A stretch of 64,000 nt of DNA from an uncultured Actinomycetota bacterium. GTDB taxonomy: Bacteria; Actinomycetota; Thermoleophilia; Solirubrobacterales; Solirubrobacteraceae. The position numbers and the translations under genes were made by a program. Under the pieces are notes generated by a model, which saw only the letters and a list, made by a program, of their open reading frames with translations, did not search any database and was not told the origin of the DNA. Numbering within the stretch: the stretch's first letter is position 1; every line of letters starts with the position of its first letter. The stretch lies in contig CAWDUK010000004.1 of assembly GCA_963805565.1 (NCBI GenBank), positions 401,938 to 465,937 of the forward strand. The letters are read 5' to 3'. Positions 7,215 to 59,365 of the stretch are shown piece by piece.

Positions 7215-7688
7215 ATGAGCCAAGCAAGTCCGGTGAGGACCAGACATCACCTGGCGAAGGTGCTGCATCCCACGCCCGGCGCGCTGCGCGAGGCGATGGG
7301 CGAGGTAGAAGGCGTCAATGCCAAGATCGCCGTGCTGATTACGAGCCTCGTCGGCACCATGTGGTGTGCCTACCTGTTCACCGCCATCGCGCTCATCGGC
7401 CTGCCGACGGCGCTCAAACCGGGCGGTGAGGGAATCGTCTCCTGGATCGCGCAGACGTTCCTGCAGCTTGTGCTGCTGTCCGTGATCATGGTCGGGCAGA
7501 ACGTCCAGAGCGCCGCCGCGGATGCGCGCTCGGTGAAGACCTTCGATGACGCCGAGAAGATCCTCGACCGGCTCGACATCCACACGCAGGGCGGTCTGAA
7601 GGCAATACTTGACCGACTGGAGGAGATGGCGCCCAGCAGCGGGGGGTCTGGCGGATCGCCAGATCTACCCGCCGGCAGGGCGGATTGA
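7215..7688 (+). CDS. Two-TM membrane protein, DUF1003 / low-affinity iron permease-like
   Basis: ATG 7215 has GAGGAG 6-11 nt upstream; the ORF-track start at 6870 would overlap the divergent gene. 157 aa with two hydrophobic helices, a ...VIMVGQNVQ... motif and a coiled C-terminus. Confidence 0.55.
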   Translation: MSQASPVRTRHHLAKVLHPTPGALREAMGEVEGVNAKIAVLITSLVGTMWCAYLFTAIALIGLPTALKPGGEGIVSWIAQTFLQLVLLSVIMVGQNVQSAAADARSVKTFDDAEKILDRLDIHTQGGLKAILDRLEEMAPSSGGSGGSPDLPAGRAD

Positions 7689-8843
7689 GGAATTCAGCGC
7701 CGCCCGCAGCCGGCGCAACGCCTCAGCGACCTCCGCCTCCTGCACCATCAACGGCGGCAGCAGCCGAATCGTCGTCGGTCCGGTGGCGTTGACGACCAGC
7801 CGTTGCTCCAGGAGCGCCTGTCGCACGACATCCGGCGCGCTCACATTCACCTCACAGGCGAGCATCAGACCGCGGCCGCGAACTGACACCACGTGCGGCA
7901 ACTCGGCGAGCTCTGTGAGCATCCACGCTCCCATCTCCTGCACGTGCGCCAGCAGCTTCTCATCGCCGGTGATCTCAAGAGCAGCAAGCGCCGCCGCAGC
8001 GGTCACCGGCCCACCGGCGAAGGTCGAGCCGTGGTCACCTGGCTGGAAGACATCGGCCAGTCGCGGACCCGTGATCAGCGCGCCGATCGGCAGCCCGCCA
8101 CCAAGCGCCTTGGCGGACGTGATCGCGTCCGGCACCACTTCTGTCTGCTGATAAGCCCAAAGCGACCCCGTCCTGCCCATCCCGCACTGCACTTCGTCGA
8201 AGATCAGCGCCGCCCCGTACGTGTCACACGCCTGCCGGGCCGCGATCAGCACCTCGTCGGAGAGCACGTTCACTCCCGACTCGCCCTGGATCACCTCCAG
8301 CAGCACCGCCGCGGTGTGCTCGTTCACCGCTTCGCGCAGAGCGCCTGCCTCCGGCGTCACCACTCGAAAGCCGGGAACCAGGGGTGCGAACGGCGCCTGC
8401 TTTGACTCCTGTGGCGTGGCAGACAGCGCGCCGTAGGTGCGGCCGTGGAAGGCGTTATGCACTACGACGAGATCCCCACCGCTGCGGGCCTTGCGCGCGA
8501 GCTTGATCGCCGCCTCGTTGGCCTCCGCGCCGGAGTTGCAGAAAAAGACCTTGCCGCCGAGGCTGCTCTCCGAGAGCCTCTGCGCCAAGTGCATCGCGGG
8601 CTCCGTGTAAAACAGGTTGGAGACGTGAATCAGCGTGCCGACCTGCTCGCGTACCGCCGCAACAATCTGCGGGTGACAGTGACCGAGGTTTGTCACACCA
8701 ATCCCACACAGGAAGTCGAGGTACTCGTTGCCCTGCTCGTCGAAGAGCCGCGCGCCCTCCCCCCGCACGAACTGCACCGGAAAACGTGCGTAGGAGGCTA
8801 CGACGCTGTGGCGCTCGATTGCCTGCAGCTCCGCGAGACTCAT
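7665..8843 (-). CDS. argD: Acetylornithine aminotransferase
   Basis: 392-aa class III PLP aminotransferase (...FCNSGAEANEAAIKLARK..., ...DEVQCGMGRTG...). It sits last in the argCJBD block, and its ATG overlaps the argB stop (ATGA). Confidence 0.92.
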   Translation of the reverse strand: MSLAELQAIERHSVVASYARFPVQFVRGEGARLFDEQGNEYLDFLCGIGVTNLGHCHPQIVAAVREQVGTLIHVSNLFYTEPAMHLAQRLSESSLGGKVFFCNSGAEANEAAIKLARKARSGGDLVVVHNAFHGRTYGALSATPQESKQAPFAPLVPGFRVVTPEAGALREAVNEHTAAVLLEVIQGESGVNVLSDEVLIAARQACDTYGAALIFDEVQCGMGRTGSLWAYQQTEVVPDAITSAKALGGGLPIGALITGPRLADVFQPGDHGSTFAGGPVTAAAALAALEITGDEKLLAHVQEMGAWMLTELAELPHVVSVRGRGLMLACEVNVSAPDVVRQALLEQRLVVNATGPTTIRLLPPLMVQEAEVAEALRRLRAALNSSIRPAGG

Positions 8844-21701: not shown

Positions 21702-22625
21702 ATGAAGCTCGACGGCATACATCACATAACCGCGATCACCGGCGATGCGCCCGCCAACGTCGAGTTCTATGCCGGCGTGCTCGGCCTGCGCTTGGTCAAG
21801 AAGACCGTCAACCAGGACGACCCCACCGTTTACCACCTCTTCTACGCGGACGAGAAGGGCTCGCCGGGCGCCGACCTCACCTTCTTCGAGTATCCGCACG
21901 CCGCGCGCGGTGTGCCGGGCGCCGGGATGGTTCACCGCATCGTTTGGCGCGTGGCCTCGCCTACGGCGCTCGACTTCTGGGAGCAGCGGCTGGCAGCGCA
22001 CGGGACCGCAAGCCGGCGCGAGGGCGAGACCCTGCGCTTCAGCGATCCTGAGGGACTCGACCACGAGCTCGCGATCGACATCAGCGGCGATGCGCCGCTG
22101 ATCGCCGACACCCCCGGCGTCCCCGCCGAGCATGCGCTGCGCGGCTTTGCGGGCGTGCACGCCTACGCGCAGGACCCCGCCGTCAGCGAGGCGCTGCTGG
22201 CGCAAACCCTTGGCTTCGAGCACGATGGCGAGAGCCGCTGGCTGATAGAGGGAGAGAATCGCCACGGCTTCTACTGCTACGACCCGGCGCCCGCCGAGCA
22301 CCCTCGCCAGGGCGCCGGCAGCGTGCACCACATCGCCTTCGCCTCCTCGATGGACGACCACGAGGCATGGCGACAGCGCGTCGCGGCCGCCGGGCAGCGG
22401 CCCACACCCGTGATCGACCGTTTCTACTTCCGCTCGATCTACTTCCGGGAGCCGAGCGGCGTGCTTTTCGAGATCGCCACGATTGGGCCCGGCTTCAGCT
22501 CAGACGAGGATGCCGCGCACCTCGGCGAGCGGCTCTCGCTGCCGCCGCGCTTCGAGCCCCTGCGATCGCGCCTGGAGCAGACGCTGAGGCCGCTGCCCAA
22601 CCCGCGTGCTGCGACGGTCGGCTAG
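21702..22625 (+). CDS. Ring-cleaving dioxygenase, VOC/glyoxalase superfamily (MhqO-like)
   Basis: ATG 21702 lies inside ORF 21390-22625. MKLDGIHHITAITGDAPANVEFYAGVLGLRLVKKTVNQDDPTVYHLFYADEKGSPGADLTFFEYP... shows the two-VOC-module architecture; 307 aa. Confidence 0.85.
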   Translation: MKLDGIHHITAITGDAPANVEFYAGVLGLRLVKKTVNQDDPTVYHLFYADEKGSPGADLTFFEYPHAARGVPGAGMVHRIVWRVASPTALDFWEQRLAAHGTASRREGETLRFSDPEGLDHELAIDISGDAPLIADTPGVPAEHALRGFAGVHAYAQDPAVSEALLAQTLGFEHDGESRWLIEGENRHGFYCYDPAPAEHPRQGAGSVHHIAFASSMDDHEAWRQRVAAAGQRPTPVIDRFYFRSIYFREPSGVLFEIATIGPGFSSDEDAAHLGERLSLPPRFEPLRSRLEQTLRPLPNPRAATVG

Positions 22626-22655
22626 CGCCGAATTTCTTTAGCAGACCAGTCTCCC

Positions 22656-23957
22656 TCAGCGTCCTAGCAAGCCCCGCCACCGGGCGATGCCTCCACTGCG
22701 ACTAGCCGCAATGTATAGGTCGCCACGTCCGTCGACGCGAAATTCGGCTGGGCGTGGCCAGTCAATGCGGTCGCTTAGATAAGCGCGCAGTTCCAGCTCG
22801 ATCAGCTCGTCTGTCCAGCGTGGCGGTCGGCCACGGCCGACGGCCGCTCTCGTTGTGCGCACCGCGCCAGGGAATGCGTATCGGGTATTCGGTCCATGCC
22901 CGCGTATGAGCAGCATGCCGTGGCCGACGAGCTTCTGCAGGTCGGTGATTGCGGTGGTGCGCTTGACGTTCGCAGCTCGTTCGTATTCACTGCGGACAAA
23001 CTCGCGCCGGCCTTCGATGCGCAGGCGTGTGAGGGCGCGTTGTTGGGAGGGGCTGAGCTGCAGTGGCGTAGATCCGCCGGGGGTGAGCTCGCTGAGGTCT
23101 TCGATCGTCGTGGTGACCCGCTCGTACTCCTCGGCGAGACCGCGCAGGAAGTAGTGCAGCCAGTGCTCCATGTTCAGCGTTCGCTCGCGCACGGAGCGCA
23201 GGGCCGCGTAGTAGGCGCTGCGGTCCTCGGCGTAGTAGCGCTCGAAGGAGAACATCCGGCCGGGAAGAAGGCCGGCCTTCATCAGCAGCGCGACCTGGAA
23301 CAGGCGAGCGATGCGACCGTTGCCATCGGTGAAGGGGTGTATCTCGGTGATGCCGTAGTGCATGACGCCCGCAATCACGAACGGGGGATAGTCCTCGCGC
23401 GCCGACATCTGCCACAGCCACTCGAACATGCCTGTCATCCTCCGCTCGACCTCCTCCGCGGGAGGTCCCTCGTGCATCACGGTCTGGGTGATCCTGTCCA
23501 CCACGAACGCTTGGCCATCGCGCCACTGTCCCTCGTGGTAGGGCTTGAAGTGCGGGTCGTTCTCGCGGCCCAGGCCGCTGGTGGTCGCCGTGTGCAGTTC
23601 CTTCAGGAACGCGGGGGTCAGCTCGAGCGAGGTACTGGCCAGGCGCGAGTCGATCAGGTCGAGCGCGTTTACGTAGTTGACCAACTCGATCTTGGCGCGA
23701 GTGTCCTGAGCCAGCTGTCCGCGGGCGGCGCGTTCGGCCTCGATCAGCGGCAGCTCGTTGCCCTCGATCAGGTTCGAATAATGGACAGTTCCCACCCGCG
23801 CCGAGGCACGCAACTGATCGGCCACCGCAGGCAGCACGCGTGCGCCCCTGATTGTTCCCAGAGCGGTGTGGATGCGCGTCAGCAGCGTGAGTGCCTCTGG
23901 CGTCCAGCGCCGGAAGCGGGCCCTGAACTCGATCGCGGTGGATGAGCTCAAGATCAC
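22656..23957 (-). CDS. Fic-family AMPylase/adenylyltransferase, class II (intramolecular inhibitory helix)
   Basis: 433 aa, GTG start. The Fic motif is HPFTDGNGRIARL (23301-23339). The N-terminal inhibitory motif SNLIEG (23760-23777) fits (S/T)xxxE(G/N). There is a C-terminal wHTH-like region plus a ~60-aa extension. Confidence 0.9.
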   Translation of the reverse strand: MILSSSTAIEFRARFRRWTPEALTLLTRIHTALGTIRGARVLPAVADQLRASARVGTVHYSNLIEGNELPLIEAERAARGQLAQDTRAKIELVNYVNALDLIDSRLASTSLELTPAFLKELHTATTSGLGRENDPHFKPYHEGQWRDGQAFVVDRITQTVMHEGPPAEEVERRMTGMFEWLWQMSAREDYPPFVIAGVMHYGITEIHPFTDGNGRIARLFQVALLMKAGLLPGRMFSFERYYAEDRSAYYAALRSVRERTLNMEHWLHYFLRGLAEEYERVTTTIEDLSELTPGGSTPLQLSPSQQRALTRLRIEGRREFVRSEYERAANVKRTTAITDLQKLVGHGMLLIRGHGPNTRYAFPGAVRTTRAAVGRGRPPRWTDELIELELRAYLSDRIDWPRPAEFRVDGRGDLYIAASRSGGIARWRGLLGR

Positions 23958-24114
23958 AAAATCGCACGTTTTAGTTGCAAAAACAATGGCTCACACCCTA
24001 GCGTTATACAGATATCGAACGCTGAAGATCATAATATCGTGCCGGTCGGCGCAGCAGATGCCCGAACGCGCGTCGGCCTATGCGCCCTCGGGGCCAGGAC
24101 AGAAGCGCGGAGCG

Positions 24115-25211
24115 CTAGTGTCCTGAGTCTGAAATTCGTTCGCAATATGCTGCGAGTGTGTTGAGTATTTGCTCGGCGGTCTTGGTCCAGACGTAGGGGC
24201 GGGGGTTCTCGTTCCAGTGGTCCATCCAGTCGCGGATGTCGTGGTTGAGTTCGCGGACGGAGCGGTGTGTGCCGCGTCGGAGCTTGCGTGAGGTGAGCTC
24301 GCCGAACCAGCGCTCGACGAGGTTCAGCCACGATGAGCCGGTCGGGGTGAAGTGCAAATGGAACCGGGGGTGGGCCGCGAGCCAGCGCTTGATGGCGGGG
24401 TCTTGTGCGTTGAGTAGTTATCGAGGATGAGGTGCACGTCCAGGTCGGCGGGTACCTCGTCGTCGATCTTCTGAAGGAATTTCTTGAACTCGATCGCGCG
24501 GTGGCGCGAGTGCAGCGACCCGATCACCTTGCCCGAAGCCACATTCAACGCTGCGAATAGGCTGCTCGTGCCGTGACGCTTATAGTCGTGAGTGGCGCGC
24601 TCGGGGACACCGGGCATGATCGGGAGGATCGGCTGAGTGCGGTCCAGTGCTTGTATTTGACTCTTCTCGTCCACGCACAAGACCAGTGCTCGCTCAGGCG
24701 GATCCAGGTAGAGCCCGACGATGTCCCTGACCTTTTCGACGAACAACGGGTCCTTGGAGAGCTTCCAGTGCTCCACTCGGTGAGGCTGCAGCCCAAACGC
24801 CCGCCACACACGCGAGATCGTCGACTGCGAGAGCCCGGTCTTGGCGGCCATCTGGCGTGTGGACCAGTGCGTTCCTCCATCCGGCGGCGCGGTCTCCAAT
24901 GTTTTGACGATCACATCCTCGACGCGCTCATCAGCGACCGTCCTGGGACGCCCAGACCGCGGCTCGTCCACGAGCCCATCGAGCCTGTCGGCGAGAAACC
25001 GCCGCCGCCACTTCCCGACCGTCGCCGCGCTCACTGAAAGCCGGGCCGCGACCTCCTTGTTGGAGTGCCCATTCGCGCACGCAAGCACGATCTGCGAGCG
25101 CAACGCCAACCCCTGCGCGGTACGACGCCTACGAGTCCACCCCTGCAACTGCGCACACTCACCGTCAGTGAGCTCCAAAACCGCCTTCGGACGACCGAGA
25201 GTAGCAGCCAT
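24115..25211 (-). pseudogene. IS630-family DDE transposase interrupted by one frameshift
   Basis: ORFs 24324-25226 and 24115-24357 are two pieces of one protein. The sequence runs ...LILDNYSTHKTP | (frame change near 24394) | ...HLHFTPTGSSWLNLVERWF.... The break is inside the catalytic domain. The likely start is ATG 25211. Confidence 0.8.
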
Positions 25212-25257
25212 ACGGCATAATACCACACTTACTCCCCGAACTTAAGACTCAGGACAC
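24118..25257 (-). mobile_element. IS630-family insertion sequence (1140 bp) with TA target-site duplication
   Basis: The terminal inverted repeats GTGTCCTGAGTCT (24118-24130) and AGACTCAGGACAC (25245-25257) are a perfect 13-bp match, extended imperfectly to about 21 bp. TA flanks lie at 24116-24117 and 25258-25259. The element encodes a single DDE transposase. Confidence 0.85.
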
Positions 25258-26117
25258 TAGAGCAGCACCTTGCGGCGGAAGTTGCGCAGCCCCAGCGCCA
25301 GGAAACCTACGCAGAAGGCGATCAGCACCGGGTAGATCGCGTACAGCGGCATGTGCGAGGCGTCTGTCAGCGCCGCACGCATCCCCTCGGTCACGTAGAT
25401 CAGCGGGTTGATCAGCACGATGATCTGCAGCCAGTGGATGCCATCCACCTGCACGGGCGAAAGGCGGGTCCACTGGTAGTAGGTGCCGCCGAGGAAAGTG
25501 AGCGGCAGAACCACGAAGCCGAACATCAGGCCGATGTTGCGCGGCTCGAAGGTGGTGCCGAGCAGCAGCCCCAGCGAGGTCATCGCCACGCATGCCAGCG
25601 GGATCAACGTCAGCGTCACGAGCCAGTGCACGTCGAGGTTCGCTTCCACCCCGCCGGCATGGATCACCGCCGCAATCGGAAACACGATCACCGCCGCGAT
25701 CACGCCCTGCACCGCCCCGGAGAGCACCTTGGAGGCGGCAACCAGCCAGATCGGGCAAGGAGCCTGCACGCGGTCCTCGATCTCGCGGGTGTAGCCGAAC
25801 TCGGTGGAGAGCTGAAGCGCCACCGCCTGGATGCCCTGGAACATGATCGAGATCGCCACCACGCCCGGGACGAGCACCGTGGCGAAATGGGACTCGGCCA
25901 CCGCCCCGCCCCCGCCGCCGACGCCCTGGCCGATGCTGGGAAAGACGTAGAGGAAGACGAAGACCAGCAGGAAAGGCTGGATCACGGTGCGCACGACGAA
26001 CTCGCCGAAGTGCTTGCGCAGCACCACGAGGTCGCGCGCCACCAGCCCCTTCATCGCCGACCAGCTGGCGGCCGCGCTGGTGCGCTGCGGTGAGATCGAG
26101 ATCGTCGTGGAGGCCAT
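25257..26117 (-). CDS. ABC-2 type exporter permease
   Basis: 286 aa with six hydrophobic helices and the typical ABC-2 layout. Its ATG overlaps the ATPase stop by 1 nt (TGATG). Its TAG stop includes the TA of the IS630 target duplication. Confidence 0.85.
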   Translation of the reverse strand: MASTTISISPQRTSAAASWSAMKGLVARDLVVLRKHFGEFVVRTVIQPFLLVFVFLYVFPSIGQGVGGGGGAVAESHFATVLVPGVVAISIMFQGIQAVALQLSTEFGYTREIEDRVQAPCPIWLVAASKVLSGAVQGVIAAVIVFPIAAVIHAGGVEANLDVHWLVTLTLIPLACVAMTSLGLLLGTTFEPRNIGLMFGFVVLPLTFLGGTYYQWTRLSPVQVDGIHWLQIIVLINPLIYVTEGMRAALTDASHMPLYAIYPVLIAFCVGFLALGLRNFRRKVLL

Positions 26118-27183: not shown

Positions 27184-29835
27184 TCAGCCGTGACGACGAG
27201 CCTTGAGCAACGGCGCCTTGGCCAGATAGTGGTGGCTGGTGCGGACCTCGACGTGCTTGTGATTCACGAAGTTGGTGACCGCCACCTTGTCGCGCGTGAC
27301 GCGGATCAGAGTCCCTTCGCAAAGATCCTCCGTCAGCCATTCGGTGCCCTGCACCGCGCCGGCGGCGTAATTGCCCTTGGTCGTGAATTTGCCGTGCGCG
27401 TTGGCCCACAGCTTGCGCACCACGTGCTTGCCTGAGGCGGAGCTGATGATCGCGGTGCCAGCCTGCGGCGGGATCTTGTAGCGGCGCGGGCAAACCGCGA
27501 AGTTGCCGCCCGTGAGCGTCGCGACCACCATCCCGTCGCTTTCCTGCGTGAGCACGAACTCGCCATCGAAGAATTCGCCGGTCTCAGTGCCGCCACCGGG
27601 CTGCGCGACGGTCACGCTCACGTGCCCGTTGGTGGCTTCGATCACGCTGCCGAGCGGGATCTGCGTGAGCGTTGTCAACGACACGAAGCCGTTGGCGCCA
27701 GGCAGCTTGACCAGCACCGTGCCGGAAACCGGGGCGACGTTGCCGGTTTTGGCGAGTGTCGGTGGCGGGACCGATGCGATTTTGGCTTTTTCGGTCGGTT
27801 CTTTCGGTCCCGAGCCGCCGCCTGAGCCTTTGCCGCTGGGCTGTTCTTCAAAGCATTTCCAGCTGAAAGCATCGTTTGGTTCTTCCGCGTAGGCGAAGGA
27901 CCCGGGGTGCTGCGTCGAGCAGGCGTTGTCCATGCTCGGAGCAGGCCCGGTCGCCGCGATCAGCACCTGATGGCCGCCTTCTTCCACGCAGGCCCAATTT
28001 TCGAAGGCGGCATCAGGCCCCACCACTTCACCCTTGTGCAGCGCGACCGAGGTGTAGCCAAGGCTCCTGCAGTAGCCGTTCAGGTCCAGTCCGCCGACTT
28101 CATGCGGTGGAACGAACACATACTTGAAGTGGTCGGCTTCACCGGCTTCGGAGGTGCCATTCGCAGTTGTGACCCTGACGTCGACCGTTCCCGTGCCGGG
28201 AGGCGTCTTGACGGTGATCGAACTGGCTGAGTTGACGGTGACTTCCGTGGCTGGCCTGCCGCCAAACTCGATCGACGCCCCGGCGACGAAGCCGCTGCCT
28301 TCGACGGTCACCTGGCTCCCGCCCGCTTCCGATCCGTAGAAGGGACTCACACCCGAGACGGCTGGTTTGAGCGCACGCGCAAGCTCCACGATCGAGTGGC
28401 CTTCCTGCGCCGCAACGTAGACGTTGGTGCCATCGGGAGAGACGACGAGCCGCCGCGCCCCTTCGAGCCCCGTCAGTGCGTTGGTGCCGCAACCACCGGG
28501 TTCTGTGGTGATGCATTCGTAGGGCGATGTGAAGGGTGCGAGCGCGCCGTTCGCCGAGGATTCGCGCTTGAAGGCGGCGACCGACGATTCGCCGGTGCTC
28601 GCCACATAGAGGTCTTCGCCATCGGGGCTGATCGCCAGGCCGCGAGTGCCGCCGATCGCCTTCACCTGCGTGCATTCGGCAATCACGGCTGTGCTCACGC
28701 AGGCATTCGGGCCGGCGAGCTGAGTCAGCGCGCCGGTGCCGGTGTTGCGTTCGAGCTCAACAACCGCGCTCTTGATGAACGAGGTCGCGTAGACGTTCTT
28801 GCCGTCGGGGCTGACCACCAGGCTCTCGGAGCCGTCGAGCGCGATGCCACTGGCGCATTTGGTGGCGATCTTTTCGCTGATGCAGCCTTCGGATCCGGAA
28901 AGCTGGGCGAGCGCGCCGTTCGCTTCGCGCTTGAATGAGGCGATCTCCCCTTCTTCTTCGGAGGCTCCGGCCGCGACGTAGACGTTTTCGTTGTCTGGGC
29001 TGACCGCGATGCCGATCGGTTCAGCCAGAGGTTGAGCCGTTTTGGCCGGGCAGCCGCTACCGGGACCGCCGATGCATTCCTGGCCCGAAAGCTTTTCCAG
29101 CAGACCGGTCGTCGTGTTGCGCTCGAACTCGGCAACCGATTCGCCCTTCACGCTTGCCACATAGACGCTTTCGCCGTTGGGGCTCACGGCAATCCCGTAG
29201 GGTTCTTTGAAGCCCTTCGCTTCGGTGATTTCGCATTCGCCGCCGGATTCGCCGGTCACACAGGCTTTGCCGGAGCTCATCAAGCTCAAGAGCCCGGTCC
29301 CCGCTTCGCGTTCGAGCTCGACCACCGCGTTGTGCGAGGCGACCGTCACATAGACGTCCTTGCCATCCTGGCTGATCGCAAGCGCAGTCGGTTTGGCCAT
29401 GATCGCCACATTCGTCTGTTCCTGAGCGCCGGAGCCCGATTCAGCGCATTCTTCGGTGCTTGCGGTGATGCAGCCGATCACGTTGAGCGCGCCCGTAGCC
29501 TGGTTGCGCGAGTACTCGATCAGGTCTCCGTTGATCGAAACCGAATAGACGTTGTCGCCTTCGGGACTGACCTGCGCTTCGTAGGCGAAGCTGAGGCCAA
29601 ACGGAACTGTGCTCCCGCACAGCGCTCTGGCTTCCTTGGCTTCGCCGATGCACCCAAGCCCTGACAGCGCGCCGCTCGGCGCTGCTGCCGCGCGTGCCGG
29701 CAGAGCGAGTGAGAGCACCGCGAGGATCGCCACCACCGCGATCCAGTTAACATCGCCGAAATATGAGGACTTCGCATCGTCAGAGCAGAAGGCGCATGGC
29801 GAGATGGGCAGCCTGAGACGGCGGCGTCGATTCAC
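27184..29835 (-). CDS. Secreted seven-bladed beta-propeller (lactonase/YncE-like repeats) - IPT/TIG - unknown C-terminal domains protein
   Basis: 883 aa from GTG 29835; the start is uncertain. It has a hydrophobic signal-like segment (IAVVAILAVLSLALPARAAAAP), seven (V/I)SPDG-x-NVYVA blades and an IPT/TIG domain (PAVSGVSPFYGSEAGGSQVTVEGSGF..., ~28126-28377). These are followed by a Cys-containing region, a G/S/P/K linker and a ~200-aa beta-rich C-terminus. Confidence 0.8.
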   Translation of the reverse strand: MNRRRRLRLPISPCAFCSDDAKSSYFGDVNWIAVVAILAVLSLALPARAAAAPSGALSGLGCIGEAKEARALCGSTVPFGLSFAYEAQVSPEGDNVYSVSINGDLIEYSRNQATGALNVIGCITASTEECAESGSGAQEQTNVAIMAKPTALAISQDGKDVYVTVASHNAVVELEREAGTGLLSLMSSGKACVTGESGGECEITEAKGFKEPYGIAVSPNGESVYVASVKGESVAEFERNTTTGLLEKLSGQECIGGPGSGCPAKTAQPLAEPIGIAVSPDNENVYVAAGASEEEGEIASFKREANGALAQLSGSEGCISEKIATKCASGIALDGSESLVVSPDGKNVYATSFIKSAVVELERNTGTGALTQLAGPNACVSTAVIAECTQVKAIGGTRGLAISPDGEDLYVASTGESSVAAFKRESSANGALAPFTSPYECITTEPGGCGTNALTGLEGARRLVVSPDGTNVYVAAQEGHSIVELARALKPAVSGVSPFYGSEAGGSQVTVEGSGFVAGASIEFGGRPATEVTVNSASSITVKTPPGTGTVDVRVTTANGTSEAGEADHFKYVFVPPHEVGGLDLNGYCRSLGYTSVALHKGEVVGPDAAFENWACVEEGGHQVLIAATGPAPSMDNACSTQHPGSFAYAEEPNDAFSWKCFEEQPSGKGSGGGSGPKEPTEKAKIASVPPPTLAKTGNVAPVSGTVLVKLPGANGFVSLTTLTQIPLGSVIEATNGHVSVTVAQPGGGTETGEFFDGEFVLTQESDGMVVATLTGGNFAVCPRRYKIPPQAGTAIISSASGKHVVRKLWANAHGKFTTKGNYAAGAVQGTEWLTEDLCEGTLIRVTRDKVAVTNFVNHKHVEVRTSHHYLAKAPLLKARRHG
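28381..29586 (-). repeat. Seven ~55-60-aa propeller-blade repeats, each connector carrying Cys-x7-8-Cys
   Basis: The blades are centred on VSPEGDNVYSV, ISQDGKDVYVT, VSPNGESVYVA, VSPDNENVYVA, VSPDGKNVYAT, ISPDGEDLYVA and VSPDGTNVYVA. The connectors read CITASTEEC, CVTGESGGEC, CIGGPGSGC, CISEKIATKC, CVSTAVIAEC and CITTEPGGC. Confidence 0.65.
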
Positions 29836-31625
29836 CGCGCAGATGGTAATGGCGATCCTCGCCGCGTCTATAGGCGTTTTTTCCTATACGGTGAACCTGC
29901 TGCGGCCGACCGAGTTGCAGTCGATCGACGCTCGGTTCTCGATCCGGGGCCGCCAGCACGTTGCCTCCGACATCGTGCTGGTGCGAATCGATCACCCTAC
30001 CCTTGAAGCATTCTCACACCGAAATCTGGCGACGAGAATCCCGCTTCCGCGCAGCTACGACGCCAAGGTGATCGAACGGTTGCGTCAGGCAGGCGCCAAG
30101 GCGATCGCGGTCGACATCGAATTCGGCCACCCATCCAGGGGCGAACACGAAACACAGGCAAGCGAAGAACGCTCAGAAGAAGAAAGCGATGAACTCTTCG
30201 AAGCCGTCGGCCGCGCACACGGCAAGGTCGTGCTCGCGGCAACCGAAATCGGTCCGCACGGCGAAAACGAAGTGCTAGGCGGCGCCGCGAACCTGCGCGA
30301 AGTGGGCGCGCGTGCCGGCGCGGCCATCCTCACCGTCGACTCAGACGGTGCCACCAGGCGTGTCGCCTACTCCTACAGCGGCCTGCCGACGCTCGGCGTC
30401 GCGACCGCCGAAGTCGCCAGCGGACACCGCTATCCAGCCTCGCTGTTCGAAGACGGCACCCTGCCGATCGACTTTCTCGGCCCCCCGCCGAGCTTCAAGG
30501 TCGCCTCGTTCTCCAGTGTGATGCTCGGCCAGTCGCCGGCAAGCCTCTTCAAGAACAAGATCGTGATCGTGGGAGCCTCCGACCCGCTCTTTCAGGACGT
30601 TCACCACACCGCCGTGGGCGGCAGCAAGGAGATGGCGGGCACGGAAATCTGGGCCAACGCGGTCTCCACGCTGCTGCGCGGCGTCCCGCTGCGCAACGCC
30701 CCCGGCTGGCTCGACATCACTCTGATCGTTCTGCTCGGCATGGCGGCCCCGCTCGCCAGCCTGCGCCTGGACGCTGGCGCTCGCTGCTCGATGCGGTCGC
30801 GCTCGGCGGCGTGTTCACGTCGCCGTGCAGATCGCCTTCAACAGCGGGCGGATCGTCACCTTCGTCTACCCGCTGCTCGCGCTGGCGATCGGCACGCTCG
30901 GCACGCTCGGCAGTGCTCTACGTCGGCGAGAGCGATCGAGCGCGAACACGTGCGCGACATCTTCGCCCGCTTCGTCCCCGCAGGTGTCGTCGAGCAGGTG
31001 CTCGCCACGCACCGACGAGAACCTTCGCCTCGGCGGCGTGGAACGCGATTGCACCGTCCTGTTCTCCGACCTGCGCGGCTTCACGAGCTTCTCCGAGACC
31101 CAGCCCGCGGCGCGCGTGATCGAGGTCGTCAACTACTACCTCAACGAGATGACCGAGGCGATCCTCGCCGCCGGCGGCACGCTGATCGCCTACATGGGCG
31201 ACGGCATCATGGCGGTCTTCGGCGCGCCGCTGGAGCAGGAGGACCACGCCGACCGCGCGCGTGCGTCGCGGCGCGCGAGATGATCGGTACGCGCCTTGAC
31301 CAGTTCAACGCCTGGCTGGCCGAGCAGGGCTTCGAGCGCGGCTTCGAAATGGGCGTGGGCCTCAACAGCGGCCCCGTGATGGCCGGCAACGTCGGCTCTG
31401 AGCAGCGCGTCGAATACACGGCGATCGGCGACACGACCAACACCGCCTCGCGCCTTGAGGGCATGACCAAGGACAGCGAGGCGATGCTGTTCATCGCCGA
31501 CGCCACGCGCGAGCGCATGCAGGCGGTGCCCGAGGATCTCGACTCTGTCGGCGAGGTGAGCATCCGCGGGCGAACGAGCGAAGCTCGGCGTGTGGACGAT
31601 CTGGCCATCGGGCAGCCGCTGCTGA
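29804..31625 (+). pseudogene. CHASE2 sensor - class III adenylate/guanylate cyclase, readable only with 6-7 frame switches
   Basis: ATG 29804 gives MGSLRRRRRFTAQMVMAILAASIGVF..., a CHASE2-like extracytoplasmic region. The TM segments and cyclase domain are scattered over three frames. Examples are VAVQIAFNSGRIVTFVYPLLALAIG and DENLRLGGVERDCTVLFSDLRGFTSFSE...AYMGDGIMAVFGAP in frame 0, and EMIGTRL...VGLNSGPVMAGNVGSEQRVEYTAIGDTTNTASRLEG in frame 2. The end at TGA 31623-31625 is inferred and uncertain. Confidence 0.75.
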
Positions 31626-31740
31626 CGACGCAGAACGACGAATCTGCGACCGCCGCTGGCAGATGCGCTGGTAAGCTGCCGCGCCAGACGCCGTCGGACG
31701 ACCCGGAGCGACCCGCCGAAGTTGAGAGCAGGCAAAGCCC

Positions 31741-32750
31741 ATGCGTCACCAGAGCTCAATCACCTCGCTGTCGTGGATACCCTCAGAGGCCGTCGAAGGA
31801 AGCATGCGCGTCGCGTTCGACACGGGCCTCGCCCACTACGACCCGCCTCCGCCCGACAAGCTCGAGGACATCGAGGCGCTGCGCGACGCCGATCGCTTCC
31901 GCTTCGCGAACGTGCTGAAGGCGTGGGTGGAGGTGGACAGGTCCGGCGAGCATCACCGACTTCGGCTACAGCGGCGGCGGGCTGATGGGCAGCACGACCG
32001 TGAAGGTCGGCCCGCTCGCGAGGACGTTCGAGGCGGTCGGGCTGCCCGATATCCAGCGCAAGCCCGCAGACGGGCAAGGACTTCGTGCGCTTCGTGCAGA
32101 CCGACGGCGGGCGCACGGGCGTGCCGGCGCCGCGCCGCGTGCGCCGCAAGCCGTTCGTGCAGTGGCAGGCGCCGCTCGTCTGGACGACGCTCTCGCTCAC
32201 GATTCACGCCGACGGTCGCGCCGAGGGCGAGATGGAGGGCGCAAGCCGTTTCCCGCGCCACTGGGTCTACGACGACGCCGGCCAGCACTCGCACAAGTCG
32301 GGGCTGGCGGACTTCAAGGACTGGTATCGCAAGTCCTTCGGCCGTCACACCCCGTGGGGCGACCAGGAGTCCAAGGCGCTCGTCACCGCGGTCGAGACTG
32401 CGCTGGAGCGCGCGCTCTCCGAGCAGGTGATGAGCGGGCGGAGACAAGCCGAAGATCAGGCGCGTGAAGGCGGGCAGCGAGCTCGTCAGGCAGGGCGAAG
32501 AGGGCTCGGAGGTCTTCCTGCTGCTCGACGGCGTGCTGCGGGTCGAGCACGACGGCGAGCGACTGGCCGAGTACGGGCCCGGCGCGCTGCTCGGCGAGCG
32601 CGCGCACCTGGAGGGCGGCAAGCGCACATCGACCCTCGTTGCTGTGACGACCTGCGGGTCGCTTCGGTGCGAGGCCGACCAGCTCGAACGCGCGAGCGCT
32701 GCGCGAGCTCTCCAAGGATCGTCGCCGCGAGAAGAGCGCCGCGGCGCTGA
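31741..32750 (+). pseudogene. Unknown ~230-aa N-terminal domain + C-terminal cyclic-nucleotide-binding domain, multiple frame switches
   Basis: The pieces are MRHQSSITSLSWIPSEAVEG... (frame 1), ITDFGYSGGGLMGSTTVKVGPLARTFEAVGLPDIQRKPADG (frame 2), KDFVRFVQTDGGRTG...FPRHWVYDDAG...ERALSEQVMSG (frame 0) and DKPKIRRVKAGSELVRQGEEGSEVFLLLDGVLRVEHDGERLAEYGPGALLGERAHLEGGKRTSTLVAV (frame 1, cNMP-binding). The 3' end is not determinable by eye. Confidence 0.6.
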
Positions 32751-32756
32751 GCAGCA

Positions 32757-33599
32757 GTGCGCGTTCACCTCTGCGGGGTGCGGGGCTCCACACCCGCGCC
32801 TGGCGCCGACTTCCTGCGCTACGGCGGGCACACCTCCTGCGTCGCGATCGCCCATGACGACGCGCAGGTCCCCAGCCTGATCCTCGACGCGGGCACCGGC
32901 GTGCGCAGCGTCAGCGCGCTGATCGGCGGGCGCACCGTTCGTCGGCACGATTCTGCTCACCCATCTGCACTGGGACCATGTCCAGGGCTTGCCGTTCTTC
33001 TCCGCCGGTGACCACGATGGCGCGCAGGTCTCGCTGTTGCTGCCGGAGCAGGAGGATGGTCGCAGGCGCTCGAGGTGCTCTCGCGCGCGATGTCACCGCC
33101 GCACTTCCCGATGGGGCCGGACGGGCTGCGCGGCACCTGGAGCTTTGGCAGCATCGCGCCGGGACGCTCGATTCATCAGGGTTTCAAGGTGTTCACGCGC
33201 GAGGTTCCACACAAGGGCGGGCGCACCTTCGGCTACAGGGTCAGCGACGGCAATTGCAGCATCACCTACATCCCCGACCACTGCCCCACCGCGCTGGGCC
33301 CCGGGCCCGACGGTTACGGCGAACTTCACCCCGCGGCGCTGGAGCTTGCGGCGGAGGTGGACCTGCTCGTGCACGACGCGCAGCTGCTCAGCGAGCAGGA
33401 GCTGGCTGCCGAAGGGCGCTTCGGACACGCCGCCGCCGATTACGCGGTGAAGCTAGGCGCCGAGGCCGGCGTGAAGACGGTCGCGCTCTTCCACCATCGG
33501 CCCGACCGCACAGATCAAACGCTCGACGAGCTCGCAACGCGATACCCCGCCCCCGCCAACGTGATCGTGGCCGCGCAGGACCCAGTGCTGCAATTGTGA
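32757..33599 (+). pseudogene. MBL-fold metallo-hydrolase (candidate Rv1339-type cyclic-nucleotide phosphodiesterase), two compensating frame switches
   Basis: GTG 32757 gives MRVHLCGVRGSTPAPGADFLRYGGHTSCVAI...ILDAGTGV (frame 0). APFVGTILLTHLHWDHVQGLPFFSAGDHDG (frame 1, HLHWDH at 32962-32979) follows. The sequence then returns to frame 0: ALEVLSRAMSPPHFP...LLVHDAQL...GHAAADYAV...ALFHHRPDRTD.... Confidence 0.7.
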
Positions 33600-33601
33600 G
33601 C

Positions 33602-35031
33602 ATGATGACGCGGCAGCGCCCACCCGGACGTGGTGGTCGTCGGCTCGGGCCCCAATGGGCTGGCAGCCGCGCTTACGCTCGCCCGCGCGGGCCTTGCGGT
33701 GGAGGTCTTCGAGGGCGCGCAAAGCCTCGGCGGCGGCTGCCGCACGCAGGAACTGACGCTGCCCGGATTCACCCACGACGTCTGCTCGACCGTCCACCCG
33801 CTGCTGGCCGCGTCGCCGTTCTTTCGAGACGCCAACCTGAAAGTGACGCTACGCACGCCGGAGGTTGCCTTCGCTCACCCACTCGACGGCGGCCATGCGG
33901 TTGCCGCCGTGGGATCGGTTACGCAGACAGCCGCCATGCTCGGCGCCGACGGGCCACGTTACCGGCGTCTACTTGGGCCGATGGCCGACTCGGTCGAGCG
34001 ATTCTGCCCTCAGTGCTTACCCCGATGTTGCGCCCGCCGGCCCATCCGTTCGCGATGGCGCGCTTCGGGCTGCGCGGCCTCTGGCCCGCCAGCGCCCTCG
34101 CGCGCGCTGTTCGAGACCCAGCCCGCGCAAGGCCCTGATCGCGGGCCTGGCCGCACACTCGATGCAGCCGCTGAGCGCACCGGGCACCGGCGCCTTCGCA
34201 TTGCTGCTGGGCATGCTTTCCCACACCGTCGGCTGGCCGGTCGTGGAAGGCGGCAGCGTGGGCGTGGTCGATGCGCTTGCCGCAGAGATCGAGGCGGCGG
34301 GCGGGCACCTTCACACCGGTCGCTGGATCGGCGACCTGCAAGAGCTGCCAAGCAGCAGGATCACGCTGCTCGACCTCACGCCCCGCCAGCTGCTCGAGAT
34401 CGCGGGAGATCGGATCCCGGCGCGCAGCCGGCGTGCCCTATCGCCGCTTTCGCTACGGCCCCGGCGTCTGCAAGGTCGACTGGGCCCTGAGTGGTCCTGT
34501 GCCCTGGCAGGCAGAGGTCTGCCGCAAGACCCCCACGCTGCATCTCGGAGGCACGCTTCGAGGAGATCGCCCTCAGCGAGTCGGAGATCGCCGCAGGACG
34601 CCACGCCGAGCGCCCCTATCTGCATCGCGGTTCAGCCCTGCGTGATCGACCCCTCACGCGCGCCGCAGGGTCAGCACACCTTCTACGCCTACTGCCACGT
34701 GCCCGCCGGCTCAAGCCGGGATGTCAGCGATCGGATCGAAGCTCAGATCGAGCGCTTCGCCCCCGGCTTCCGCGACCTGGTGCTGGCAAAGACCGTCACG
34801 ACGGCGACCGAGATCGAGTCCCACAACCCCAACTGCATCGGCGGAGACATCAACTCCGGCGCGGCCACCCTGGCACAGACGCTGTTTCGCCCCACCGTCA
34901 GCCTGCGCCCGTACAGCACGCCGCTGCCCGGCGTCTATCTCTGCTCCTCCTCAACCCCTCCCGGCGGCGGCGTGCACGGGATGTGCGGGGCAGGCGCCGC
35001 ACAGGCCGCGCTGCACGACCTGCGTCACTGA
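33602..35031 (+). pseudogene. CrtI/phytoene-desaturase-family FAD-dependent oxidoreductase, 6-7 frame switches
   Basis: The Rossmann motif is DVVVVGSGPNGLAAALTLARAGLAVEVFEG. Later pieces in other frames include ILPSVLTPMLRPPAHPFAMARFGL, ALIAGLAAHSMQPL...[45 protein letters not shown] and [14 protein letters not shown]...PGGGVHGMCG. The start is either ATG 33602 (needs a shift near 33625) or GTG 33630. Confidence 0.7.
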
Positions 35032-59283: not shown

Positions 59284-59365
59284 CAAGCCGAGTCTAGGGT
59301 TCGCTGCGGCGGTGCCGGCAGCGCTCTGCGAGCCGTCAACCGACGTCGCTATACTTTGTAAAGCG

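Follow-up and report, generated by a model that had tools for sequence, protein, structure and literature searches.

Single-base frameshifts packed into a four-gene cyclic-nucleotide module of a Solirubrobacteraceae metagenomic contig are very probably errors of the assembly consensus

Assemblies built from long reads (Nanopore or PacBio) are known to contain single-base (±1) insertions and deletions (indels) that truncate or frameshift predicted proteins; such errors come without other damage, and the corrected proteins look normal. When diverged alleles are collapsed into one long-read consensus, indel errors and apparent frameshifts can result (PMC8445201). Frameshifts in adjacent genes are also a mark of pseudogene clusters that decay once constraint is lost, as in host-restricted bacteria. 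Here we describe a tract that invites both comparisons, found in a 64,000-nucleotide (nt) stretch, called the window throughout, of the genome of an uncultured Solirubrobacteraceae bacterium (GCA_963805565.1, contig CAWDUK010000004.1, positions 401,938 to 465,937; G+C about 68%). About 23 single-base indels are confined to four consecutive genes, which encode a CHASE2-sensor cyclase, a cyclic-nucleotide-binding (cNMP-binding) protein, a metallo-beta-lactamase-fold (MBL) protein and a flavin adenine dinucleotide (FAD)-dependent oxidoreductase. The evidence assembled below makes it very probable that these indels are consensus errors of the assembly rather than mutations of the organism, which most likely has four intact genes.

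The tract departs from both described situations. Its indels are not of the familiar homopolymer type of long-read error, being mostly non-templated G or C insertions and losses of a lone A or T; they are packed into one 3.9-kb patch on a contig that is at least 50 kb long and clean elsewhere, and the patch is at the same time a block of different ancestry. Unlike the genes of pseudogene clusters, the affected genes have no stop codons, their ratio of non-synonymous to synonymous divergence (dN/dS) is not relaxed and their conserved residues are kept; the in-gene indels are all of 1 bp, lie outside repeats and are common to none of the relatives. The likeness to pseudogene clusters extends to the module being dispensable in the clade, since it is deleted in two relatives, L065 and L056 (related loci are numbered with the prefix L). 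The genes themselves, as distinct from the indel anomaly, resemble CHASE2 class III cyclase modules with a cNMP-binding partner: once corrected, they encode a CHASE2 domain, a cyclase domain and a cNMP-binding protein, and here they adjoin an MBL-fold protein and a flavin oxidoreductase. The four genes are as follows, with lengths in amino acids (aa) after correction and L132 as the intact relative used for alignment.

29804..31720 (3' end approximate), + strand: CHASE2-sensor class III adenylate/guanylate cyclase gene; about 635 aa, aligned with residues 1-635 of the 637-aa L132 orthologue
31741..32750, + strand: cNMP-binding gene; about 334 aa, Pfam cNMP_binding, aligned with residues 1-334 of the 334-aa L132 orthologue
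32757..33599, + strand: MBL-fold gene; 280 aa, matching positions 29-200 of the 200-position Lactamase_B_2 profile, with a 280-aa L132 orthologue
33602..35031 (start approximate), + strand: FAD/NAD(P)-binding oxidoreductase gene, phytoene-desaturase-like; about 470 aa, Pfam NAD_binding_8 and Amino_oxidase

Single-base indels were placed by two methods: a frameshift-aware alignment of intact orthologous proteins from L001, L057, L065 and L132 to the DNA, and a DNA alignment to the same four loci and L133. Between them the methods gave about 23 single-base events from 30771 to 34619 (18 insertions and 5 deletions), and the corrected reading path contains zero stop codons. This agrees with a first-pass annotation, made from the letters alone, which had counted some 18 to 23 frame switches in four consecutive genes and described the correct-frame pieces as stop-free; each of its junctions was recovered within about 12 nt by both methods. 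The sites that it had called merely possible (31580, 32653, 32670, 32698 and 33625) proved mostly real, with the one at 31579/31580 left uncertain. The shifts run in both directions, as it had described, and are not balanced: insertions are in excess and the frame is regained in only two of the four genes. The protein-to-genome alignment with orthologues that it had proposed as a check showed interrupted frames in the window and single frames in the orthologues. The events, all on the + strand, are listed below with the inserted base in square brackets; XYX denotes an inserted base that splits two identical bases.

30771: 1-bp deletion; a lone T of the relatives is missing
30819: 1-bp deletion; a lone A or G is missing
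30913: 1-bp insertion; ggca[G]tgc, non-templated
30930: 1-bp insertion; cga[G]agc, XYX type
31007: 1-bp insertion; gcc[A]cgc, XYX type
31261..31266: two extra bases, as two 1-bp insertions or one 2-bp insertion; the cyclase gene is back in its original frame
31579: possible 1-bp insertion, uncertain; poorly conserved C-terminal tail of the cyclase
31951: 1-bp insertion; gag[C]atc, non-templated
32063: 1-bp insertion; aag[C]ccg, the sole insertion that copies an adjacent base
32435: 1-bp insertion; gag[C]ggg, XYX type
32655: 1-bp deletion; a lone A, compensated after 16 nt
32671: 1-bp insertion; tgc[G]agg
32693: 1-bp insertion; gcg[C]gag, XYX type
32734: 1-bp insertion; gaa[G]agc, XYX type, a few codons 5' of the stop of the cNMP-binding gene
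32936: 1-bp insertion; exact base ambiguous within 32934-32937
33059: 1-bp deletion; a lone A or C
33610..33612: FAD gene shorter by a net 8 bp at its start, readable as an in-frame loss of 9 bp together with one additional base
33999: 1-bp deletion; a lone A
34106: 1-bp insertion; within the GCGCGCGC stretch
34127: 1-bp insertion; cgc[G]caa, XYX type
34443: 1-bp insertion; exact base ambiguous within 34440-34445
34555: 1-bp insertion; cac[G]ctt, XYX type
34619: 1-bp insertion; cta[T]ctg, non-templated; the block has no indel beyond this one

All relatives vary in the length of the cyclase tail and of the spacer to the cNMP-binding gene (31560-31741), where several indels of 1-44 bp occur; the frameshift calls at 31508, 31579 and 31620 are uninterpretable.

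Correction restores the expected proteins. The N-terminal part of the cyclase stays in one frame until about 30765, and the corrected protein matches CHASE2 with 132.5 bits and Guanylate_cyc with 75.7 bits (profile positions 8-176 of 183), above the Pfam gathering score; without correction the latter match falls into two fragments of about 33 bits each, and throughout the module Pfam domains that are split between frames become contiguous once corrected. The corrected FAD protein is 91-92% identical in amino acids to the intact proteins P0001 and P0002 and to that of L065. Dozens of Solirubrobacterales assemblies carry all four genes in synteny and unbroken. Among them, L132 and L133 are the closest relatives with intact genes; they come from Joint Genome Institute (JGI) metagenomes, are 88-89% identical in nucleotides, and encode proteins of 622-637, 334, 280 and 476 aa. 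A plot of G+C at third codon positions, which is independent of homology, also shows repeated frame changes between 30.7 and 34.7 kb. An open reading frame (ORF) of 769 aa (29609-31918) runs across six or seven indels and includes two arginine-rich stretches read out of frame; it stays open because these first six or seven shifts add up to zero modulo three and because wrong frames are free of stops in such GC-rich DNA.

The damage is confined to the module, as had been claimed. The block has about 6 indels per kb and coding sequence elsewhere fewer than 0.03 per kb, and 38 other genes of the window, compared with their orthologues on one JGI contig (L136, L132, L137), showed zero frameshifts. 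The sole ambiguous 1-bp difference among these control genes is one extra A at 59286 (catca[A]gcc); the JGI gene call of 344 aa that covers this site probably extends too far, since the glutaredoxin-like gene there is likely to start at the ATG at about 59366, and the difference is thus probably intergenic. Within the window no second copy of the block was found.

A look at the same locus in relatives, also suggested by the first-pass annotation, found the window's indels in none of them. They are all missing from L065 (an Illumina assembly, 93% identical in nucleotides), from L132 and L133, and from L001, and none is held in common with the nearest relative, L057, a circular MAG (metagenome-assembled genome) of the Microflora Danica set that is 91% identical over 11.8 kb. 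The alignment of the window with L057 has 69 gaps, all but about three of them within 30772-34821; L057 carries about 25 one-base insertions of its own, none of them at a window indel position. Over 7.2 kb, the gaps between L065 and the window are the FAD frameshifts of the window and one intergenic 8-mer only. L132 and L133 showed no lineage-specific indels in the block.

The indels have an unnatural signature. It was scored in a five-way DNA alignment, in which 13 insertions were unambiguous. Twelve of these differ from both adjacent bases, seven split a dinucleotide so that XX is read as XYX, and in 10 of the 13 the inserted base is G or C. In each of the five deletions the missing base is a lone A or T, and event size is 1 bp throughout. 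Three homopolymers of at least 5 bases exist in the block and none was struck, in agreement with the earlier remark that the junctions avoid long homopolymers. L057 has a like signature, with 19 of 21 insertions non-templated. For comparison, mutation accumulation in Mycobacterium smegmatis, a high-GC actinobacterium, yielded 856 substitutions and 207 small indels (about 4:1), with 79% of the spontaneous indels in simple repeats and insertions 2.1 times as frequent as deletions (PMC4938668). The excess of insertions in the window is therefore not diagnostic; what is diagnostic is the context of the indels and the ratio of indels to substitutions. By the M. smegmatis ratio, 22 natural indels would be accompanied by some 90 random substitutions, among them 2-3 stops; neither was observed.

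These properties bear first on the possibility that the module was truly and very recently inactivated, so that about 23 real frameshifts mark a fresh cluster of pseudogenes in a block perhaps imported by recombination. The indels are unquestionably in the deposited sequence. Real inactivation would nevertheless have to yield events that are exactly 1 bp each time and insertions of which 12 in 13 are non-templated and none lies in a repeat, against the preference for simple repeats seen in M. smegmatis; and since one frameshift suffices to disable a gene, selection cannot explain six to eight per gene before any other decay. We consider real inactivation improbable; it is the reading that the first-pass annotation had given for the case that the indels are real, namely that a complete cyclic-nucleotide module was inactivated very recently.

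The junctions also bear on recoding, by which programmed ribosomal frameshifting or transcriptional slippage would restore the frame in the living cell. Recoding would account for correct-frame pieces that are stop-free and conserved. No slippery heptamers, homopolymers or common motif were found at the junctions, however, the orthologues are single uninterrupted frames in dozens of genomes, and six to eight bidirectional shifts per gene would leave a negligible amount of product. Recoding can be set aside as next to impossible.

The first-pass annotation had noted indels without matching decay by substitution, and this holds. Counting codon changes specific to the window within the block, we found 67 synonymous and 75 non-synonymous changes, no stops and a mean BLOSUM62 score of +0.35, whereas random single substitutions in the same codons would give 26% synonymous and 72% non-synonymous changes, 2.6% stops and a mean score of -0.59. 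In the block, 457 codons show at least 97% invariance across sets of 25-102 intact orthologues, and six of them are altered in the corrected window proteins, compared with a leave-one-out baseline of 2.2 for the intact orthologues; two of the six lie within the compensating pair 32655/32671 and one is a start codon. This bounds random substitutions at roughly 1% or less. Within the block, dN/dS comes to 0.21 when the window is compared with L132 and to 0.24 when it is compared with L057, next to about 0.2 in the unaffected CHASE2 part. No clustering of substitutions around the indels was seen. That 22-23 indels should come with at most about 1% random substitutions, no stop and conserved residues kept speaks against real inactivation as well.

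The tract of indels coincides with a block whose ancestry is different and older and on which purifying selection still acts:

30690..34620 (approximate), no strand: block of different ancestry with all indels within it; identity to L057 is 83-90% inside and 92-100% on both sides

In sliding windows, identity to L057 is 92-99% as far as about 30650, drops to 83-90% between about 30690 and 34550 and is 93-100% beyond about 34590. Synonymous divergence (dS) between the window and L057 reaches 0.33 in the block, as against 0.137 and 0.112 in the flanks, and substitutions found only in the window stand at 3.3-5.5% inside the block and 1.8% outside. For the window and for L057 alike, the frequency of lineage-specific substitutions in the block is roughly double that in the flanks, with a flatter codon-position profile and more transversions. 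Random error or neutral decay was rejected as the source of this excess, which is conservative, avoids invariant sites, contains no stops and raises dS like dN; relaxed selection is unable to raise dS, so the higher value reflects older ancestry. The additional substitutions of the block are thus selection-filtered allelic differences from another lineage. Borders shared by the indel tract and the ancestry block are as expected if the reads behind the patch differ from those behind the flanks.

The relatives are themselves mosaic: identity between L057 and L132 leaps from about 82% to about 93% at around 30390, and only upstream of the block do the window and L057 group as sisters (94%), with the ancestry changing at about 30650. 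Apart from the artefact, homologous recombination thus seems to be frequent in the clade.

Indels confined to one contiguous tract, whose sharp borders fall where the ancestry switches, might also be expected from localised hypermutation, in which error-prone repair, recombination or reverse transcription copied about 4 kb with ±1 errors and the product was then fixed; the excess substitutions of the tract are, in addition, rich in transversions. Those extra substitutions are conservative, however, and dS is raised like dN, which identifies them as old allelic differences. Known mycobacterial translesion polymerases make their frameshifts in homopolymer runs (PMC10159617), and that is not the context of the window indels. 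Equivalent patches, moreover, lie in many unrelated places of Nanopore MAGs and in no short-read assembly. Localised hypermutation is in our view scarcely credible. A related scenario is that an imported tract of about 3.9 kb gained some 23 real, non-templated ±1 indels in one burst with hardly any substitutions; we hold this to be very improbable. If true, it would amount to an indel-specific local mutagenesis undescribed in bacteria, and cyclic-nucleotide signalling through the complete module would have been silenced in a lineage with relatives that lose the same module by deletion.

The link with sequencing technology also supports consensus error. The four L132 proteins were aligned to 131 related loci, and gaps of a length other than a multiple of three were then called when seen against two references; these two-reference DNA gap calls replaced a generic blastx-based frameshift caller, which was too noisy and biased towards the module. 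Membership in the Microflora Danica set, which is Nanopore-only, was assigned from record and contig labels. Dense, kilobase-scale ±1 patches were found in nine Microflora Danica loci (L004, L022, L028, L051, L055, L057, L058, L060 and L061) and in L125, a European Nucleotide Archive assembly whose type is not stated. The patches strike different genes, flanking ones included, and their direction bias differs from patch to patch. Those with mapped borders are:

L004, 1796-5958 and 16523-20418: mostly deletions; module clean
L051, 9677-11610 and 15589-19246: the latter with 36 insertions in 3.7 kb
L057, 9402-11773
L022, 6747-12425
L055, 9924-12398
L058, 1-1700: mostly deletions

None of the Illumina or JGI loci had a kilobase-scale ±1 patch, and Illumina against Illumina controls (L010, L030) gave four isolated events in about 15 kb. 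A like signature at other positions and in other genes, present in Nanopore-only assemblies only, is not what real inactivation of this module would leave. MAGs related to the present one were produced with metaFlye and one round of Medaka, short-read polishing being absent (PMC12313526). The exact proteins of the window are found on a contig of 1,075,295 bp, a size that fits a long-read MAG. The first-pass annotation had offered a locally poor consensus, such as a single low-quality read, as its simplest explanation, and it is the one favoured by the non-templated ±1 indels, the absence of decay, the intact relatives that lack the indels and the Nanopore-only class of assembly; GC compression, which it had named beside it, is a Sanger artefact and inapplicable to a 1.08-Mb metagenomic contig.

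Damage at this locus in several assemblies might give the impression that the module decays throughout the clade, that the locus is hard to sequence, or that the module is a hotspot for indels. L056 and L058 are two contig ends of one MAG that end inside the same genes and are also frameshifted; their 1.3-kb overlap is 95% identical and holds 23 indels and 41 mismatches. With the window, L057 and L056/L058 all damaged in the module, a hotspot was considered and rejected as ascertainment bias: every fetched locus was centred on the module, which accounts for the apparent damage at the same locus, and other Nanopore loci are equally dense in indels in flanking genes.

How the patch arose may be pictured as follows. 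Over about 3.9 kb (30690-34620) the contig would not be a well-covered consensus of the dominant population; it would instead follow a single read, or very few, from a related strain that co-occurs with it, or a mixed pile-up of two alleles. The patch would then carry the real, selection-filtered substitutions of the other allele, some 6-7% of extra divergence, and errors of the raw-read type (±1, about 0.6% of bases) would remain in it because polishing lacked sufficient depth. A length of 3.9 kb is of the scale of a single long read, and the direction bias of each patch would suit a single read or strand.

Several observations weigh against consensus error, and some of them favour real inactivation. 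L065, an Illumina MAG, is without 27392-33468, that is the 3' part of the TIG gene, the cyclase gene, the cNMP-binding gene and most of the MBL gene, and retains the FAD gene intact; L056 is without the counterparts of window positions 27557-31632, 31806-32437 and 33800-33913, which comprise the cyclase gene and part of the cNMP-binding gene. Such structural losses make the module dispensable and polymorphic in the clade, so that a real inactivation is not absurd. An insertion excess of about 2:1 is natural in M. smegmatis, an actinobacterium without MutSL, and direction bias by itself has no discriminating power. The dN/dS of the block in the window (0.21-0.24) is somewhat above that of other lineages there (0.12-0.14), and transversions are enriched in the block (transitions to transversions 83:100 inside, 46:21 outside); a small component of random error or relaxed selection may accordingly be present in it. 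An identical intact copy of the allele was not found in 5.8 billion proteins, where the best match of the corrected FAD protein was 92% and that of the corrected cyclase segment (204 aa, spanning six indels) was 85%. The window contig is probably long-read and Nanopore-only like its closest relatives, as judged from its size and sources, and a low-coverage or minor-strain mechanism is likely, with the switch of ancestry at both borders of the patch as indirect support.

Searches for a closer relative gave no locus above about 93% nucleotide identity in any collection, and scans of genomes and metagenomes with a fragment of the MBL protein reached at most 85% aa identity. Two Logan contigs, SRR27942843 (L134) and SRR28061500 (L135), encode a protein identical to the aminotransferase of the window (7668-8843), which indicates that the same or a near-identical strain has been sequenced elsewhere; protein searches for a Logan contig covering the block gave no near-identical match.

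For the biology of the organism the indels carry little weight, as the module of cyclase, cNMP-binding protein, MBL protein and oxidoreductase is almost certainly intact in it. Their weight is as a warning that public Nanopore-only MAGs contain kilobase-scale ±1 patches in otherwise clean contigs, several of the affected loci coming from a collection with one genome per GTDB species. Because the errors lie outside homopolymers, homopolymer-aware checks miss them. In high-GC DNA wrong frames often stay open, and gene callers then emit full-length, partly nonsense proteins to which checks of ORF length are blind. Patches of this kind can pass for pseudogenisation and contaminate the catalogues of proteins. 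Since the patch coincides with a change of ancestry, strains may have been joined locally into a chimera, a condition that would fall outside the design of whole-genome contamination checks.

The module is syntenic in the window, L001, L132, L133 and about 50 other loci, and its neighbours in L132 and L133 are a TIG/lactonase-like gene (about 950 aa) on one flank and a regulator with HTH_31 and MLTR_LBD domains on the other. In the cNMP-binding protein the cNMP domain is C-terminal and the N-terminal part of about 235 aa is uncharacterised. One may speculate that the MBL protein is a phosphodiesterase.

Upstream of the module, a 2.65-kb segment (22614-25260) is missing from L001, L056, L057, L065, L132 and L133; a mobile insertion specific to the strain is the probable explanation. 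The single further frame break that the first-pass annotation had reported is in this segment. Two genes lie within it:

22656-23957, - strand: Fic/DOC-family gene
24324-25226, - strand: IS630-like transposase gene; helix-turn-helix domains and a DDE_3 domain truncated at profile position 93 of 146

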